Sequence record: MK327928.1
DNA length: 64,000 nt
Reading direction: 5' to 3' (one strand)
Source: Escherichia phage vB_EcoM_G2133
Shown: piece by piece, positions 31,009-41,972 of the stretch
How positions within the stretch are numbered: the first letter of the stretch is position 1
How the letters are laid out: each line of letters opens with the position of its first letter
The notes under the pieces: generated by a model
Told to the model about the DNA's origin: nothing
Seen by the model: only the letters and a program-made list of their open reading frames with translations
The model's database searches: none
Made by a program: the position numbers and the translations under genes

Positions 31009-31311
31009 TTATTTACCTTTAATTACTTTAGCTGCTTCGATAGCCGCTTGCTGAAGGTCATCCATAGACATACCGAATTTAGAAGCAAAGTTATCAATTT
31101 TCTTTTCGACAGCATTCAAAGGCTTGGCCTGTTTACCTTCATTAGCGCCAGGAAGAGCGAGAATACGCTCTTTGTCAATATAAAGGCTTACAAGTTTCTT
31201 ACGGTCTTTATCGGACAAATCATGAAATGAATGGGCCTTTTTATTTATAGCGGCTTCTAATTTACCTGCACTCACTCGCGCTTCAGTAATAAATTCTTGA
31301 TATGTTTTCAT
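31009..31311 (-). CDS. ipII: Internal protein II (capsid-targeted, injected)
   Basis: 100 aa; N-terminal capsid-targeting sequence MKTYQEFITEA. Confidence 0.75.
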   Translation of the reverse strand: MKTYQEFITEARVSAGKLEAAINKKAHSFHDLSDKDRKKLVSLYIDKERILALPGANEGKQAKPLNAVEKKIDNFASKFGMSMDDLQQAAIEAAKVIKGK

Positions 31312-31352
31312 ATGTTTCCTTTAAATGTAAATAGGTCTGAGTATTAGCTTTA

Positions 31353-31931
31353 TTAGGAATTACGGGCTGCATTAGCAACGGCGTAAGCGTACTGAACATT
31401 AGCGTCTTTAAACGTACCTTTAGAGGTATCTAGTTCTGCCTTAAAGCCGCCTTTAGTCATAACATCGGCAAATTCTTTACGGAAAGCCATTGCATCAAGA
31501 CTTCTCCATAATGATTTGTGCTTGGCGAATTCAAGACCAGCGTAGTTGACAGCCTTAGCTAATTTGTTATCAATAACCCATTTACCAGCTTTAGGCACAA
31601 ACACCGGGCCTTTCTGTTTAGAGAACAGTTTTAAATTCCAGCGACGAAGGTCACCGTCGGCTTTAACAAAAGCTGCGTCTAAGTTACTAGCAACAACATC
31701 CTGAATATGGCCAAATTTAAGCCCATCAACTTCAATATTTAGATCGGTACGCCAGCGAAGTCCTTCCCAAGCGAAAGCTTTAAAGTCGGAAGCCTTTGTA
31801 GCTAAGTACCGTTCAATAGGAGCTGTTTTAGGGTCAAAGCCGTTTCCCGATCGGTAGGTCCACTCATCTTTATTAATGCCTTTGGCCTTTACTACAGAAG
31901 CTTCGGCAATAAATTCTTGATATGTTTTCAT
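31353..31931 (-). CDS. ipIII: Internal protein III
   Basis: 192 aa; N-terminal MKTYQEFIAEA, and the body matches T4 IPIII as I recall it. Confidence 0.8.
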   Translation of the reverse strand: MKTYQEFIAEASVVKAKGINKDEWTYRSGNGFDPKTAPIERYLATKASDFKAFAWEGLRWRTDLNIEVDGLKFGHIQDVVASNLDAAFVKADGDLRRWNLKLFSKQKGPVFVPKAGKWVIDNKLAKAVNYAGLEFAKHKSLWRSLDAMAFRKEFADVMTKGGFKAELDTSKGTFKDANVQYAYAVANAARNS

Positions 31932-31959
31932 GTGTTTCCTTGTTTGTTTTGATAGAGTA

Positions 31960-31989
31960 ATTATACCATATTAATACTTAAGCGTAAAC
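31960..31989 (-). promoter_or_regulatory. T4-type early promoter upstream of ipIII
   Basis: GTTTAC, 18 nt, TATAAT (preceded by TGG) on the minus strand. Confidence 0.6.
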
Positions 31990-32069
31990 CGTTTAAGCTT
32001 TACCGCCAGAAATAATTCCGAAGTTGTTAAAATCATATCCAATATCGTCAACATCTACTTTAGGACTTG

Positions 32070-32252
32070 CTACAACATAAGCAATTTCACTACGTTTGCA
32101 TAGGTGTTGATTTCTTTACCATCGCCACCTAAGAAAGAATACCCATTACGTTTTAATGAGCCAAAGTCTTCCACATCACCAATGAAAGCTTTAACTTTAA
32201 ATTTAGAACCTTTGGCATCTGCTTCAACGATAAATTCTTGATACATTTTCAT
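32070..32252 (-). pseudogene. Truncated IP-like gene (capsid-targeting leader, then early stop)
   Basis: Starts MKMYQEFIVEA but terminates after 60 codons; the downstream sequence stays open in another frame. Confidence 0.4.
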
Positions 32253-32258
32253 TTTTCC

Positions 32259-32672
32259 TTAGTAAATTGATTTACCAAAGTATTTGTACCAAGTCGGACG
32301 TTGAGCAATTTTTTCATCTAAGCGTGCTTGACTTATCGCAATGGACGCTTCGGACGGGACATAATTATTACGAAATTCTACAGGAATGTCGGAAATATCC
32401 TGGACTGTCGTGTCCTTGATTTTGAAACCACGTTTCAAACATTCAGCGATTAGCTCGATTTGACGTAAACGTAAAAATTCGAGTTTGTCGTAAAAGAATG
32501 TTACGTGACCTGTGCCTAAGATAAATGTTGGAGAGATTTTAAAATCCTTTACACGTTTACCGTTTTGAACATGTTTACGGACTGCACCAAATACGCGTGG
32601 TAATTCACGATACTCAGCCATAAGATGTTGGTCGGTCAATTCAAAAACAAGTGTTAAATTGATACGGGTCAT
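32259..32672 (-). CDS. denV: Endonuclease V (pyrimidine-dimer DNA glycosylase) DenV
   Basis: Start at the ATG at 32672; MTRINLTLV...[19 protein letters not shown] matches T4 endonuclease V. Confidence 0.88.
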
Positions 32673-32699
32673 AATTTCCTCCAAGTAGTTGATGAATGT

Positions 32700-32729
32700 A
32701 TAGTATCAAAACCCTTGGAGGAAGTAAAC
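32700..32729 (-). promoter_or_regulatory. T4-type early promoter upstream of denV
   Basis: GTTTAC, 18 nt, TACTAT on the minus strand. Confidence 0.55.
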
Positions 32730-32731
32730 AA

Positions 32732-33972
<1,241 letters not shown>

Positions 33973-37059: not shown

Positions 37060-37370
37060 CTTGCGGCAACCTTGTCGGGGTTCCACCTGCTAAGGCAAGT
37101 GTTTGTACGAAACGCCGGGATTCGAACCCGGTTATTAAGCAGTTGACGCTACTCAATATTTTAAAAGGCCATATCTCGACCATATCCGAACGTTCCGTCA
37201 AAAACGCTACTCGGCTTATGGCAAAGATATTTCCTCGAATCGATAATTCGGTGCGCCGTTTCTGCTGTGATATAAGGGGGGCATTAACAAAACATAAAGA
37301 TTTATTAATGCCAGTCCTTAAACAGGGAACATCAGTCCGACGACTTACCGGTAGCGACCCGGTTTCTTGT
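37060..37370 (-). ncRNA. Probable stable small RNA region (positional equivalent of the T4 species 1/2 stable RNAs), includes a tRNA-like T-arm
   Basis: No convincing ORF; GC-rich structured sequence with GGTTCGAATCC at about 37112-37132; lies between tRNA-Arg and the terminator. Confidence 0.3.
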
Positions 37371-37371
37371 C

Positions 37372-37447
37372 TGGTCGAGGCAGTAGGGATCGAACCTACG
37401 ACCCAGGACTTAGAAGGTCCTTGCTCTTCCTTCTGAGCTATGCCCCG
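37372..37447 (-). tRNA. tRNA-Arg (anticodon UCU), CCA encoded
   Basis: Manual fold: acceptor CGGGGCA/TGCCTCG, anticodon loop CTTCTAA, T-arm GGTTCGATCC, 3' ACCA. Confidence 0.85.
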
Positions 37448-37450
37448 TAA

Positions 37451-38116
37451 TTAAAATTTCATTTTTCGACCTTTAAACCATCCTTCTGGAATTGGGTCAG
37501 TTTTCTTAATACGTTTAGAAACTTTTTCATCTAATGAATGAATCCACATCATGCCAAATTGGGAATTCTTTTCACCTTGTTGGTGTTTATTTCTGGCGTG
37601 AGATTCTTTCATTTTATTAATAGTTTCAGGAGTATGGGTCTTACCCAAGAAAGATTTAGTATTTAAAAATTTCTCTCTATACTTAGGATTATCCCAAAGC
37701 TGTTTAAACCTTTCTGAACCCATTTTACGATATTTTTCTTTAAGGTCTGGGTCGTTCTCAAATCTGGTTTTAAAAGCGGCAGCTCCTTTTAAGGAAGCTT
37801 CTTTCTTTTTATCCAAATATTCTTTAGTGTTTAAATGGTCCCAACCACCTTCACCACCTAATTTCAAATTATAAACATCAGGGCGCTTTAAAAACTCTTC
37901 AGTCACAATATTCTTTTCTGACTCAAACATAGAGGTTTTATCGTCAAAGAACTCTAATATTTCTTTAGAAAAATTTTCTATACCATACTTATCTTGGGCT
38001 CTTTTTAATAATTTACCAGAACCCATATATCCATCATCTAAATTTTCGGTAGAATGAGCGCCTATATAGATTTTATTATTAATTTTATTTGTTATTTTAT
38101 AAATGTAATGGAACAT
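37451..38116 (-). CDS. segB: GIY-YIG homing endonuclease SegB
   Basis: 221 aa; N-terminal YIYKITNKINNKIYIGAHS GIY-YIG module; sits inside the tRNA cluster as in T4. Confidence 0.75.
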   Translation of the reverse strand: MFHYIYKITNKINNKIYIGAHSTENLDDGYMGSGKLLKRAQDKYGIENFSKEILEFFDDKTSMFESEKNIVTEEFLKRPDVYNLKLGGEGGWDHLNTKEYLDKKKEASLKGAAAFKTRFENDPDLKEKYRKMGSERFKQLWDNPKYREKFLNTKSFLGKTHTPETINKMKESHARNKHQQGEKNSQFGMMWIHSLDEKVSKRIKKTDPIPEGWFKGRKMKF

Positions 38117-38157
38117 AAATATCTCCTATTTCTAAGAGTATTTATGTTCTCAAAATA

Positions 38158-38229
38158 TGGCCCTGGGTGGAATTGAACCACCATCTGGCGATTATGAGTC
38201 GCTTGCTTGAACCTTCCAGCTACAGGGCC
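38158..38229 (-). tRNA. tRNA with anticodon CAU (Ile-type if modified, otherwise Met)
   Basis: Manual fold: acceptor GGCCCTG/CAGGGCC, anticodon loop CTCATAA, T-arm GGTTCAATTCC; CCA not encoded. Confidence 0.75.
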
Positions 38230-38235
38230 TTGATA

Positions 38236-38308
38236 TGCTGATTGACGGAATCGAACCGCCGACGTCCTCATTACAAGTGAGGTGCTCTACCTACTGAGCT
38301 AAATCAGC
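38236..38308 (-). tRNA. tRNA-Thr (UGU)
   Basis: Acceptor GCTGATT/AATCAGC, anticodon loop CTTGTAA, T-arm GGTTCGATTCC. Confidence 0.85.
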
Positions 38309-38315
38309 GAAATTA

Positions 38316-38402
38316 CGGAGGCGATAGGATTTGAACCTATGAGTCGCCGGAGCGACTGCCGGTTTTCAAGACCGGTGCATTAAACCACTCTGCCACGCCT
38401 CC
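38316..38402 (-). tRNA. tRNA-Ser (UGA), long variable arm
   Basis: Acceptor GGAGGCG/CGCCTCC, anticodon loop CTTGAAA, T-arm GGTTCAAATCC. Confidence 0.85.
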
Positions 38403-38404
38403 AG

Positions 38405-38478
38405 TCTCCATACAAGGATTTGAACCTTGGACCTCCTGATCCCAAATCAGGCGCTCTACCAAACTGAGCTACACGGAG
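38405..38478 (-). tRNA. tRNA-Pro (UGG)
   Basis: Anticodon loop TTTGGGA, T-arm GGTTCAAATCC; directly abuts tRNA-Ser as a dimeric precursor. Confidence 0.85.
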
Positions 38479-38490
38479 TAAATTAAATTT

Positions 38491-38562
<72 letters not shown>

Positions 38563-38568
38563 AAACTT

Positions 38569-38655
38569 TGGTACGAGAAGTGGGACTCGAACCCACAAGG
38601 AAATCATTCCGCAGCATTTTAAGTGCTGTGCCTTTACCAATTTGACTATTCTCGC
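38569..38655 (-). tRNA. tRNA-Leu (UAA), long variable arm, CCA encoded
   Basis: Acceptor GCGAGAA/TTCTCGT, anticodon loop CTTAAAA, T-arm GGTTCGAGTCC, 3' ACCA. Confidence 0.85.
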
Positions 38656-38661
38656 TCTATA

Positions 38662-39270
38662 TTATTTATTACGTGAAAAAGATTGTTCTATCAATTCTGG
38701 ACACTTTCGTTCTATCCATTTTCTAGCTTTTTGTGGGCTTATACCTATTATTTTAGCAGCTTTACTAACCCATCCAAATTTAGAATAATCGATTTTAACT
38801 AATTCTTCGTAAATTTCATCAGTTAAAATCTTTTCATTAATATTTACCAGTAAATGATATAATTTATTATCATTAGCAATTTTAATGAATCTTTTATAGT
38901 TTCCGCCTTTACTTAAACCTAATGAAGTAATTGCAGATGATATAGTAGCCGAATTTAATAATGCGTTTAAAATTTCTTCATCACTAACATTATAACGCTT
39001 TTTATTATTTTTAATATTTTTACCAGCAAAAGTATCAGTTTGCGAATGGCAATTTGGACATAATAATCTTAAATTTGATTTAAGATGATTTTTATTATTT
39101 CCATCAATATGGTCTAATTGCAGAACAATATGCTTATTTTGCCATTTTGAAATTTTACAAATTGCACACTCATATGGAAAAATATTTTCTTTTATTATTT
39201 TGTCTTTCAGCTTTCCTGTACTAAAATTTGGATGTTTTCCTTCAAAAATTTCAGCTAATTTAGTATCCAT
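38662..39270 (-). CDS. HNH endonuclease with C-terminal helix-turn-helix-like domain, adjacent to the tRNA array
   Basis: Start at the ATG at 39270; CAIC...LQLDHIDGNNKNHLKSNLRLLCPNCH HNH and zinc-finger motif. Confidence 0.65.
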   Translation of the reverse strand: MDTKLAEIFEGKHPNFSTGKLKDKIIKENIFPYECAICKISKWQNKHIVLQLDHIDGNNKNHLKSNLRLLCPNCHSQTDTFAGKNIKNNKKRYNVSDEEILNALLNSATISSAITSLGLSKGGNYKRFIKIANDNKLYHLLVNINEKILTDEIYEELVKIDYSKFGWVSKAAKIIGISPQKARKWIERKCPELIEQSFSRNK

Positions 39271-39380
39271 AATATAATTCCCAATTATTAACAAAGGCTC
39301 TCTAACAAGAACCCTTGATGATAGAGGGTATTAATCGGTGCGGTATGAGTTAATAATAACAAATAATTCTTAAAGCATAT

Positions 39381-39668
39381 TTACCATTTATGATGATACA
39401 TATTTACGATGCATTCAAGACCCAAAGGATTCTTGAAAATATCATATTCAAGAGGACCTTTTTCTGTTTCAATAAAGAAATCAAAGTTAACTGTGTTAAA
39501 TTTACGGTCTTCCTTTACTAATTTAACCTGAGAAGATGAACGGTCAATGTAAACCTTTTCGACTTCAAAACATGTTAAAATGCCATAATCATCAATCAAG
39601 GCTTTAGCTGCTTCTTGATCATATTTATATCCATTTTCAATGGACGATACTTTCGCATAAAGAATCAT
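39381..39668 (-). CDS. Hypothetical protein
   Basis: 95-aa ORF with ATG start. Confidence 0.45.
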   Translation of the reverse strand: MILYAKVSSIENGYKYDQEAAKALIDDYGILTCFEVEKVYIDRSSSQVKLVKEDRKFNTVNFDFFIETEKGPLEYDIFKNPLGLECIVNMYHHKW

Positions 39669-39670
39669 TA

Positions 39671-39853
39671 TTAACCTTTAGAAATTTTATCCATAGCAAT
39701 AGCGATTAAACCAATTAAAAATGCTACTACAAGTGAAAAAACATTTTCTGCCGTAGTCAATAATCCGCATATAAATCCAACAAACATTGAAAAACTGAAA
39801 GCAGAAGCAGAAATTGCAATAGCAACATTTCGAATTAATTCACAGCGTTTCAT
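39671..39853 (-). CDS. Small membrane protein
   Basis: 60 aa from the ATG at 39853 (GAGGAGAA Shine-Dalgarno); two hydrophobic segments. Confidence 0.4.
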   Translation of the reverse strand: MKRCELIRNVAIAISASAFSFSMFVGFICGLLTTAENVFSLVVAFLIGLIAIAMDKISKG

Positions 39854-39881
39854 TTTATTCTCCTCAGTAGTTGATAGGGTA

Positions 39882-39911
39882 ATAGTATCACTACCCCATC
39901 TAAAAGTAAAT
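39882..39911 (-). promoter_or_regulatory. Early promoter variant (ATTTAC -35)
   Basis: ATTTAC, 18 nt, TACTAT, followed by the CCCTATCAACTAC box. Confidence 0.45.
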
Positions 39912-40145
39912 TTATTTTTTACGAAAAATTGATTTATTTTCTGCTGCCCATTTTTCAATAACTGCAGCAGGACCAGTAACAACAATTTTATCACCGTAAT
40001 CTTCTGCGGCGAGTTGACCGAAATTATCTAATGCATCACGAAGAACTCCATGAGGCATTTCACCCATTTTATCTTTCTTGCCAGTGTAAATAAACTCAAC
40101 TTTTACATCAGCAGTTTCAGCAATAAATTCTTGGTAAGTTTTCAT
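39912..40145 (-). CDS. IP-like capsid-targeted small protein (ipI position)
   Basis: 77 aa from the ATG at 40145; N-terminal MKTYQEFIAE capsid-targeting sequence. Confidence 0.6.
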   Translation of the reverse strand: MKTYQEFIAETADVKVEFIYTGKKDKMGEMPHGVLRDALDNFGQLAAEDYGDKIVVTGPAAVIEKWAAENKSIFRKK

Positions 40146-40177
40146 TTTAGTTTCCATTCGATTGTTTTGATAGGGTA

Positions 40178-40207
40178 ATAGTATCACAACTAAAACCCTA
40201 TGTAAAC
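40178..40207 (-). promoter_or_regulatory. T4-type early promoter
   Basis: GTTTAC, 18 nt, TACTAT; upstream element aaaataatttcacaaagttGTTTAC. Confidence 0.55.
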
Positions 40208-40219
40208 AACTTTGTGAAA

Positions 40220-40477
40220 TTATTTTAAATCTTCTAATCGTTTTTTCATCTTAGAACCATTTTTAGCAATTTCTCCTGCATCGGAGCATAATGCTAAAAG
40301 TGCTTTAACTTTCGTTTGGTCTCCTTTAAAAGATGAAGGATCTACTGCAGCAGCAAGTTCTTTAATACGAGAGAAAAGACGCTCAGCTTCAGCTAAAGCC
40401 ATTCCAAGCTTTACTTCCATACCGTGGGAAGATTCAGTGATAGTAGTTTTTGTAGCAAACTCTTTGAAAGTTTTCAT
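40220..40477 (-). CDS. IP-like capsid-targeted protein, paralog of ORF 32732..33013
   Basis: 85 aa; N-terminal MKTFKEFATK; body AEAERLFSRIKELAAAVD...ALLALCSDAGEIAKNGSKMKKRLEDL aligns with 32732..33013. Confidence 0.6.
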   Translation of the reverse strand: MKTFKEFATKTTITESSHGMEVKLGMALAEAERLFSRIKELAAAVDPSSFKGDQTKVKALLALCSDAGEIAKNGSKMKKRLEDLK

Positions 40478-40507
40478 TTTATTTTCCTAATTAATTTTGA
40501 TGAGATA

Positions 40508-40537
40508 ATAGTATCACTACCTCATCAGCATGTAAAC
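40508..40537 (-). promoter_or_regulatory. T4-type early promoter
   Basis: GTTTAC, 18 nt, TACTAT; same upstream element as the promoter at 40178-40207. Confidence 0.55.
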
Positions 40538-40549
40538 AACTTTGTGAAA

Positions 40550-41246
<697 letters not shown>

Positions 41247-41247
<1 letters not shown>

Positions 41248-41972
41248 TATAGTACCTTTAGTGTATTTTTAATTTTAGAAAAAAGTTCTTCAAGAGAACC
41301 ATCGTTTGTAATTACTAAATCGCCATCACGAATTGGCAATCCAGCTTCTGTAATATGTGTATCATTGGATTTTTGACCAGGACGAACTACATGAATTACT
41401 GTAGCACCCATCGCCCTAGCCGCATCCATTTCATGATCTTGACGGGTATCAGGAACGATATAATAATCATAACCTGAGTTAAATTTATCAAGATAATCTA
41501 AAGCAAATAATTTTACCCAGTACATGCGGTCGAAGTTATTAACAATCAAATCCGTACCTAGGGCTTGCATCAGACGACGGACTGACCATTGATCTTCAAT
41601 ATTATTTATAACGTCAGTAATTTTGTTAAATGCTACGAAATTAACTGATTCTTTTCCTTCGTCGTCAAAAACAAACACGCCTTTAATCGGGCTTTTACTA
41701 TTAAGATAGCAAAATGCTTGTTCCATAATCATAATTACTTCTAATTTAGTCAAATTCAAATTAGTCTCACGATCATAGTCAATTCCTTCAAACTCTTTAC
41801 GAGTTAAGCAAGGATAATCATTGTTTGCAGCAAATACACCCCATGCATAAGCCAATGCATCCTTAATAGGACCAGCAAGTTGATATTTAACTGCAGAATA
41901 ATTATTCATGATAAAATCTGCAGTAGTATCTTTTCCACTACGCTTTACACCACTTAAAAAGATTAGTTTCAT
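41247..41972 (-). CDS. 1: dNMP kinase gp1
   Basis: 241 aa; P-loop GVKRSGKDT; matches T4 gp1. Confidence 0.9.

Follow-up and report, generated by a model that had tools for sequence, protein, structure and literature searches.

What are the two small genes that lie beside gene 57B in the T-even phage vB_EcoM_G2133, and what do their products do for the phage? The window that we analyzed is a stretch of 64,000 nucleotides from this phage (record MK327928.1). An initial annotation, made from the sequence alone, took the two genes for a second cluster of internal protein (IP) genes, with capsid-targeting leaders and an early promoter in front of each; it also took one of them for a paralog of the IP gene beside the lysozyme gene e, and read the pair as a sign of diversifying selection on injected effectors.

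The phage belongs to Tequatrovirus. Over 11.5 kb, the closest records in the phage collection match only in pieces, at about 95–96% identity, and none is identical, so its genome is a mosaic. The interval runs on the minus strand throughout, with gene 1 (dNMP kinase), 57A, 57B, the two small ORFs, tRNA.4, tRNA.2, a homing-endonuclease-like ORF, and the tRNA cluster. The two ORFs have the coordinates that were first given for them (39912..40145 and 40220..40477), but they are on the minus strand. In the direction of transcription, the features are:

40550..41005, minus strand: 57B, of the Acb1 anti-CBASS nuclease family (Pfam PF23474 Acb1, E = 2.6e-60), the upstream boundary of the ipI slot.
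40478..40549, minus strand: promoter module 1, between 57B and Ip5 (from promoter motifs, repeat alignment, and RNA folding).
40220..40477, minus strand: Ip5 (ipV), 85 amino acids, MKTFKEFATK... (100% identity to RB15 Ip5; phrog_3499).
40146..40219, minus strand: promoter module 2, between Ip5 and Ip6, with the architecture of module 1 (from promoter motifs, repeat alignment, and RNA folding).
39912..40145, minus strand: Ip6 (ipVI), 77 amino acids, MKTYQEFIAE... (100% identity to bas37_0260; phrog_8111).
39854..39911, minus strand: promoter module 3, between Ip6 and tRNA.4, a related copy with a weaker −35 (ATTTAC) (from repeat alignment and RNA folding).
39671..39853, minus strand: tRNA.4, which encodes a small membrane protein and bounds the ipI slot on the downstream side (phrog_1692).

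Both boundaries are well annotated in relatives (57B as gp57B in PST, T6, and T4; tRNA.4 under that name in PST, RB51, RB18, and T4). The order 57B-Ip5-Ip6-tRNA.4 is also found in PST, T6, and Bas37, and in 248 records in all. In T4, the slot from 57B to tRNA.4 is occupied by ipI. Thus, the second IP cluster is real, and it is the classical ipI locus. The Ip5 paralog lies elsewhere, between e and denV. As 57B is of the Acb1 anti-CBASS family, 57B, Ip5, and Ip6 make up a run of three counter-defense-type genes. Farther downstream, tRNA.3, which lies between tRNA.4 and tRNA.2 in T4, PST, T6, and Bas37, is missing from the window (38662..39668). An ORF of 210 amino acids (38662..39294, minus strand) lies between tRNA-Leu and tRNA.2; it has no Pfam match, and in relatives an HNH or homing endonuclease is annotated in this region. 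The tRNA cluster (37105..38655, minus strand) includes eight tRNAs (Lys, Arg, Met, Thr, Ser, Pro, Gly, and Leu), with the GIY-YIG homing endonuclease segB (37451..38116) inside it. T4 and PST have different sets; in the window, for instance, tRNA-Leu has no tRNA-Gln beside it.

The identity of both proteins is clear. Ip5 is 100% identical to Ip5 of RB15 (a 1994 GenBank record), to the PST and T6 forms, and to bas37_0261 of phage Bas37, and 177 phage records have a protein that is at least 99% identical to it. Ip6 is 100% identical to bas37_0260 of Bas37 (record MZ501089) and 95–99% identical to the forms in PST and T6; its start is an ATG inside a longer, GTG-started ORF (39912..40187), and the ATG is the annotated start in all relatives. 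Ip5 is homologous over its full length to phrog_3499 (E = 1e-50), and Ip6 to phrog_8111, "internal virion protein" (E = 1e-52). The names ipV and ipVI, or Ip5 and Ip6, are used in the annotations of PST, GiZh, RB51, RB18, and VR7, and Ip6 or ipVI is annotated in PST, GiZh, RB18, VR7, and fFiEco06. The genes, the locus, and its repeated promoter modules are already known, as the polymorphism of the ipI locus was published in 1994.

Beyond the T-even phages, homology offers little help. Homolog searches with Ip5 and Ip6 returned T-even phage proteins only, neither protein has a Pfam family, and a sequence search of the PDB with both gave nothing significant. The Ip5 family is very narrow: when 1.84 billion representative proteins were searched with a profile, four representative clusters matched. 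Each of them has the leader, and no function can be borrowed from more distant relatives, as there are none. Fold searches were uninformative, and a search of the literature for the names Ip5, Ip6, and Ip7 returned only papers on inositol phosphates.

Are these proteins destined for the capsid? Six copies of ATGAAAACNTWYMARGAATT, the pattern that codes for the start of the leader, are present in the window, where 0.09 would be expected, and every one is on the minus strand. Two of these are the starts of Ip5 and Ip6 and the other four are at the IP locus next to e:

32732..33013, minus strand: the Ip5 paralog, 93 amino acids, with a leader ending in SILNE (phrog_3499 and alignment with Ip5).
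32070..32252, minus strand: an ORF of 60 amino acids between denV and Ip3, with a capsid-targeting (CTS) type of leader, MKMYQEFIVE (from the leader pattern).
31353..31931, minus strand: Ip3, 192 amino acids, a classical T4-type internal protein (phrog_5341 and leader match).
31009..31311, minus strand: Ip2, 100 amino acids, a classical T4-type internal protein (leader match).

Across 12 IP genes from the window, RB15, and the Gaprivervirus TH22, the only part that aligns is M-K-T-[YF]-x-E-F-...-[LIV]-x-E; Ip6 begins with MKTYQEF and Ip5 with MKTFKEF, and both align with the other ten. This leader is present in diverged family members as well. Ip6 has the canonical leader of 10 residues (MKTYQEFIAE). 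The leader of Ip5 has 15 residues (MKTFKEFATKTTITE; coded by 40433..40477, minus strand), which is its length in Tequatrovirus, and resembles the 19-residue leader of T4 IPI. At the level of the motif, the [L/I]-x-E site of the prohead protease gp21 is present as IAE at residues 8–10 of Ip6 and as ITE at residues 13–15 of Ip5, with predicted cuts after E10 and E15, respectively.

Two comparisons bear on the cut in Ip5. First, T4 IPI (95 amino acids, leader MKTFKEFTSTTTPVSTITE) has the same type of leader, and its mature form, IPI*, has 76 residues (PMC3012670). This places the gp21 cut of IPI after ITE19 and, by analogy, that of Ip5 after ITE15. Second, the Ip5 ortholog of TH22 (701-943 of the compared TH22 sequence) has a leader of 10 amino acids, MKTYQTFITE, which is followed directly by SSHGMEV as in the window's Ip5; this supports a cut at ITE15. 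As the same mature N-terminus is found behind a leader of 10 or of 15 amino acids, the leader and the body of Ip5 seem to have recombined separately. Overall, both ORFs do have the capsid-targeting leader that was claimed for them, and it is retained in relatives (in the Gaprivervirus ortholog and in more distant members), where the initial annotation had allowed that it might be missing. From these leaders we infer that Ip5 and Ip6 are packaged in the head and cut by gp21; we found no virion proteomics for Ip5 or Ip6 in the literature.

The regions upstream of the two genes are also alike. Positions 40165-40235 and 40495-40565 are 83% identical over 71 nt, and by inspection they share an exact stretch of about 32 nt, which starts at the end of the preceding gene (three codons, D-L-K, and the stop codon) and takes in the −35 hexamer. 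Each of the two contains TTTACA-17-TACTAT, with a TG in front of the −10. A search of the window for GTTTACA-N13-GTGATACTAT gave 12 matches with at most three mismatches, all on the minus strand (0.23 were expected), and the only exact ones are the promoters of Ip5 and Ip6. Thus, the near-identical promoter and upstream element that had been noticed before each ORF are confirmed as a repeated intergenic module with a sigma-70-type early promoter, and each gene has its own. Module 1 consists of an AT-rich upstream element, the −35 GTTTACA, the TG-extended −10 TACTAT, a predicted stem-loop over the −10, and a Shine-Dalgarno sequence. Its RNA has a predicted folding energy of −14.8 kcal/mol (z = −2.65 relative to shuffled sequences), and that of module 2 has −21.6 kcal/mol (z = −4.79); the corresponding z score for module 3 is −3.18. 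In all three modules, the predicted stem-loop would enclose the −10 hexamer. Covariation in the stem-loop is weak: across 14 junctions, double changes are seen at 2 of the 13 pairs, 77% of cells are paired, and among phages the stem occurs in two registers.

T4 internal proteins are produced in large amounts both early and late (PMC6071114). We found no late-promoter motif (TATAAATA) in either intergenic region (57B-Ip5 or Ip5-Ip6), and on the coding strand the first copy upstream of them lies within gene 1 (41603-41610). A late supply of Ip5 and Ip6 would therefore need read-through or continued use of the early promoters. This raises the possibility that the two proteins act only in the cytoplasm, as newly made early anti-defense factors, and that the leader is kept as part of a recombination module and not for packaging. 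The promoters directly upstream are indeed only of the early type, crossovers have evidently occurred in the promoter and leader region, and Ip3 expressed in the host remains active without its CTS (PMC9391042). However, otherwise unrelated bodies carry a leader whose amino-acid sequence, including [L/I]-x-E, is conserved, and although this leader may have 10, 15, or 19 amino acids, it always ends in ITE or an equivalent. Also, an inhibitor that is made after the DNA has entered would presumably come too late for the incoming genome. We give this possibility little credence and continue to expect that Ip5 and Ip6 are packaged.

The modules also suggest how the locus varies. Junctions of the slot in the window, T4, RB18, RB51, and RB15 all share the core GTTTAC...GTGATACTATTA...ATCAA...GGA...AAAATGAAA, and the sequences 5' and 3' of this core assort independently among these phages, as expected from recombination within the module. 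Judging from these junctions, the diversity of the ipI locus is due to the presence, absence, and exchange of whole cassettes at the promoter modules rather than to rapid point substitution. Such exchange at repeated promoter modules is what Repoila et al. (1994) described, going by how that study is cited: Arbiol et al. (2010, PMC2839356) credit it with PeSL-like elements at the two IP loci. The same authors mention more than 30 known IP variants and suggest that the PeSL-like elements could underlie the plasticity of the IP loci.

How is Ip5 related to the IP gene next to e? The two proteins are 48% identical over 84 amino acids (E = 1e-24), and with both leaders removed they are 54% identical (E = 1e-19). 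Both are in phrog_3499 (E = 1e-46 to 1e-50). So, the alignment is not spurious and the ORF at 40220..40477 is a true paralog of the IP beside e, as had been proposed. At the start of the e-adjacent gene, ATGA holds both its ATG and the stop codon of e. Unlike Ip5, it has no early promoter of its own; two TATAAATA late-promoter motifs are found just upstream of e (33512-33532). The e-adjacent form is found in 231 records at 95–99% identity. The two forms are nearly mutually exclusive: 496 records have either one, and only 12 of these have them in two places, which puts the window, with both, in a small minority. Given this rarity and the mosaic genome, the pair looks like two old, lineage-specific cassettes that were joined by recombination, and not like a recent local duplication.

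The window's e-proximal locus (31009..33498, minus strand) has the order e, Ip5 paralog, denV, 60-amino-acid ORF, Ip3, Ip2, and the order in T4 is e, ipIII, ipII, denV. The window's lysozyme has 162 amino acids. The 60-amino-acid ORF at 32070..32252 matches the Ip2-like phrog_2667 (internal head protein) only in part (E = 5.7e-12) and may be a short or truncated IP cassette. It shares the motif NGY[ST]FL with an ORF of TH22 (347-646 of the compared TH22 sequence).

If IP cassettes were diversifying under positive selection, then we would look for it in their substitution rates. (We used gene-wide, pairwise dN/dS by the method of Nei and Gojobori and give ranges for dS of at least 0.2.) For Ip5, dN/dS is 0.06 between the window and TH22 (dS = 1.49) and 0.08 between the window and RB51. 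Relative to RB15, PST, and T6, there are 4–9 synonymous changes and no non-synonymous changes (dN/dS = 0). Pairs of Ip6 orthologs have dN/dS of 0.10–0.26 (dS of at least 0.37), and the values for the neighboring genes 57B and tRNA.4 are within the range of those for Ip5 and Ip6. Gene-wide, each IP cassette is under purifying selection, although positive selection that is episodic or confined to certain sites could escape this method.

The initial annotation had instead read Ip5 and the e-adjacent gene as an in-genome duplicate pair that diverged under diversifying selection on injected effectors. The homology is clear, as described above, and IP genes as a class are in an arms race with type IV restriction enzymes. 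But even for the pair itself, gene-wide dN/dS is 0.29 (with dS saturated at 1.57), and every gene-wide pairwise value at dS of at least 0.2 is between 0.06 and 0.29. Each paralog is also conserved within its own group (the 177 records for Ip5 and the 231 for the e-adjacent form), the diversity comes from the exchange of cassettes, and the few records with both places fit old cassettes that were brought together in a mosaic genome. We conclude that diversifying selection is unsupported and that this account of the pair is unlikely. Cassette exchange with purifying selection on each cassette remains our reading of the locus.

Turning to function, the identity of Ip6 to bas37_0260 implies that the ORF at 39912..40145 already has a published function under another name. 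The HIDEN-SEQ preprint (10.1101/2025.11.20.689424), which combined a knockout phenotype with transposon sequencing in phage Bas37, describes bas37_0260 as "at the same locus as" T4 ipI. The gene is dispensable on clinical isolates and on K-12 without type IV systems and is required on K-12 BW25113; its deletion makes Bas37 specifically sensitive to McrBC, and insertions in it have a log2 fold change of +5 on clinical isolates as compared to K-12 BW25113 (10.1101/2025.11.20.689424). Given this knockout of an identical protein, we propose that Ip6 blocks type IV restriction by McrBC, whether directly or indirectly. Bas37 carries a β-α-glucosyltransferase of the T2/T6 type. In DNA of the T2/T6 type, a fraction of the hydroxymethylcytosines stays unglucosylated and is a substrate for McrBC. 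This would explain the need for an injected inhibitor of McrBC, if glucosylation in the window's phage is of the T2/T6 type.

A different view is that Ip5 and Ip6 are mainly generic proteins that fill the head and balance the charge of the DNA, with no specific host target. There are about 1,000 IP molecules per T4 head and IP lysines touch DNA phosphates (PMC3012670), a charge-balancing role has been discussed (PMC6071114), and the predicted mature form of Ip5 (70 amino acids) is basic (pI 9.2) and helical. (In an AF2 model with a pLDDT of 81, which is moderate confidence, the leader is followed by a long helix and then two shorter ones.) In contrast, the predicted mature form of Ip6 (67 amino acids) is near neutral (pI 6.5); its AF2 model, also of moderate confidence (pLDDT of 82), has a ferredoxin-like α/β fold. 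Furthermore, both genes are non-essential in Bas37, loss of Ip6 gives a specific, McrBC-dependent phenotype, and Ip1, Ip2, and Ip3 have specific targets (PMC12373910). Overall, a generic role in the head seems very unlikely for these two proteins, and we retain the proposal that they are anti-restriction factors.

For Ip5, the target is less obvious. Silas et al. (2025, PMC12373910) showed that three different GmrSD type IV enzymes are inhibited, one each by Ip1, Ip2, and Ip3. The initial annotation had suggested testing the paralogs against GmrSD-type systems, and such a test is already in the literature: when ip4-10 were examined against further GmrSD classes, there was no reproducible interaction or inhibition (Silas et al., 2025, PMC12373910). 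As the nomenclature in that study cites Repoila 1994, its ip5 and ip6 are presumably the families found in the window. The GmrSD of strain UTI89 restricts T2 and T6, which are carriers of Ip5 and Ip6. Comparison of the mature bodies of Ip5 and Ip6 with Ip1, Ip2, and Ip3 found no homology (only the leader aligns with T4 IPI), and Ip2 and Ip3 are separate genes in the window that belong to other PHROGs. Ip5 is most likely another injected inhibitor of a strain-specific host nuclease, and the e-adjacent paralog is probably one as well.

Transposon data give a hint of an Ip5 role on one strain. The HIDEN-SEQ supplementary values considered here for bas37_0261 (2364-2621 of the compared Bas37 sequence, identical to Ip5) are those for two of the five clinical strains. 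Insertions were four-fold depleted on the uropathogenic E. coli (UPEC) strain CFT073 as compared to K-12 (log2 fold change −2.09, adjusted p below 1e-5 and reported as 0), and on CFE299 the log2 fold change was −0.01 (10.1101/2025.11.20.689424). The preprint offers no comment on the depletion on CFT073. In the same data, insertions in 57B are also depleted on CFT073 (log2 fold change −1.56). CFT073 encodes a GmrSD homolog, c5421, in its immigration control region. That c5421 is the target of Ip5 is only a guess. Extending it, the two members of the Ip5 family might form a pair of injected inhibitors against variants of one host defense (the candidate being the GmrSD homolog in the immigration control region of UPEC, such as c5421 of CFT073), so that a phage with both paralogs would have a wider host range; we consider this doubtful, if conceivable.

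Taken together, the explanation that we favor with considerable confidence is that the window carries Ip5 and Ip6 cassettes in the ipI slot of a T2/T6-like Tequatrovirus, that they encode injected anti-restriction proteins, and that they are exchanged at their promoter modules. Within each cassette, a strong early promoter of the T4 type with its predicted stem-loop would be followed by the Shine-Dalgarno sequence, the capsid-targeting leader, and a body that varies. If T4 IPI and IPIII are a guide, Ip5 and Ip6 would be made both early and late, their N-terminal leaders would bring them into the scaffolding core of the prohead, and the mature proteins would enter the host together with the DNA. 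In between, gp21 would cut the leader at [L/I]-x-E, which would leave a neutral α/β protein of 67 amino acids (Ip6, cut after E10) and a basic helical protein of 70 amino acids (Ip5, cut after ITE15). Ip6 would then counter McrBC, and Ip5 would counter another host nuclease. The near-identical promoter modules would act as homology patches for the insertion, deletion, and swapping of cassettes between phages.

Internal proteins are established as injected anti-restriction factors for Ip1, Ip2, and Ip3, with Ip6 linked to McrBC since 2025. The present analysis makes it possible to link the old name Ip6 to the newly characterized Bas37_0260, and CFT073 gives a usable experimental lead for Ip5. 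If a target for Ip5 is found, it would add one more pair to the catalog of internal proteins and type IV restriction enzymes, which helps to predict the host range of therapeutic T-even phages.

It is also instructive to compare this locus to known systems. RB15, PST, and T6 have the same slot (57B to tRNA.4), the same gene order, and the same promoter modules, and nothing of substance is different. Just downstream, the window differs from PST, T6, and T4 in that it is without tRNA.3, and unlike most phages with Ip5, it also carries the e-adjacent paralog. The PeSL cassettes of RB49/phi1-type phages are likewise repeated modules, in which an upstream stop codon comes with an AT-rich tract, a promoter, and a Shine-Dalgarno sequence, as well as a stem-loop, for which covariation in the modules of the window and its relatives is weak; they too flank small non-essential genes and act as recombination sites for the shuffling of cassettes (PMC2839356). 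However, the elements at the IP loci are built on T4 early promoters and have weaker, AT-rich stems, and Arbiol et al. (2010, PMC2839356) consider them analogs and not homologs of PeSLs. Bas37_0260 and the window's Ip6 are the same protein in the same locus context, with the function known from the knockout in Bas37, although the preprint does not use the older name Ip6. Finally, T4 IPI resembles Ip5 in its slot, its promoter module, its long MKTFKEF...ITE leader, and its mature length of about 70–76 amino acids, and its mature form, IPI*, is an injected inhibitor of the GmrSD enzyme of E. coli CT596.
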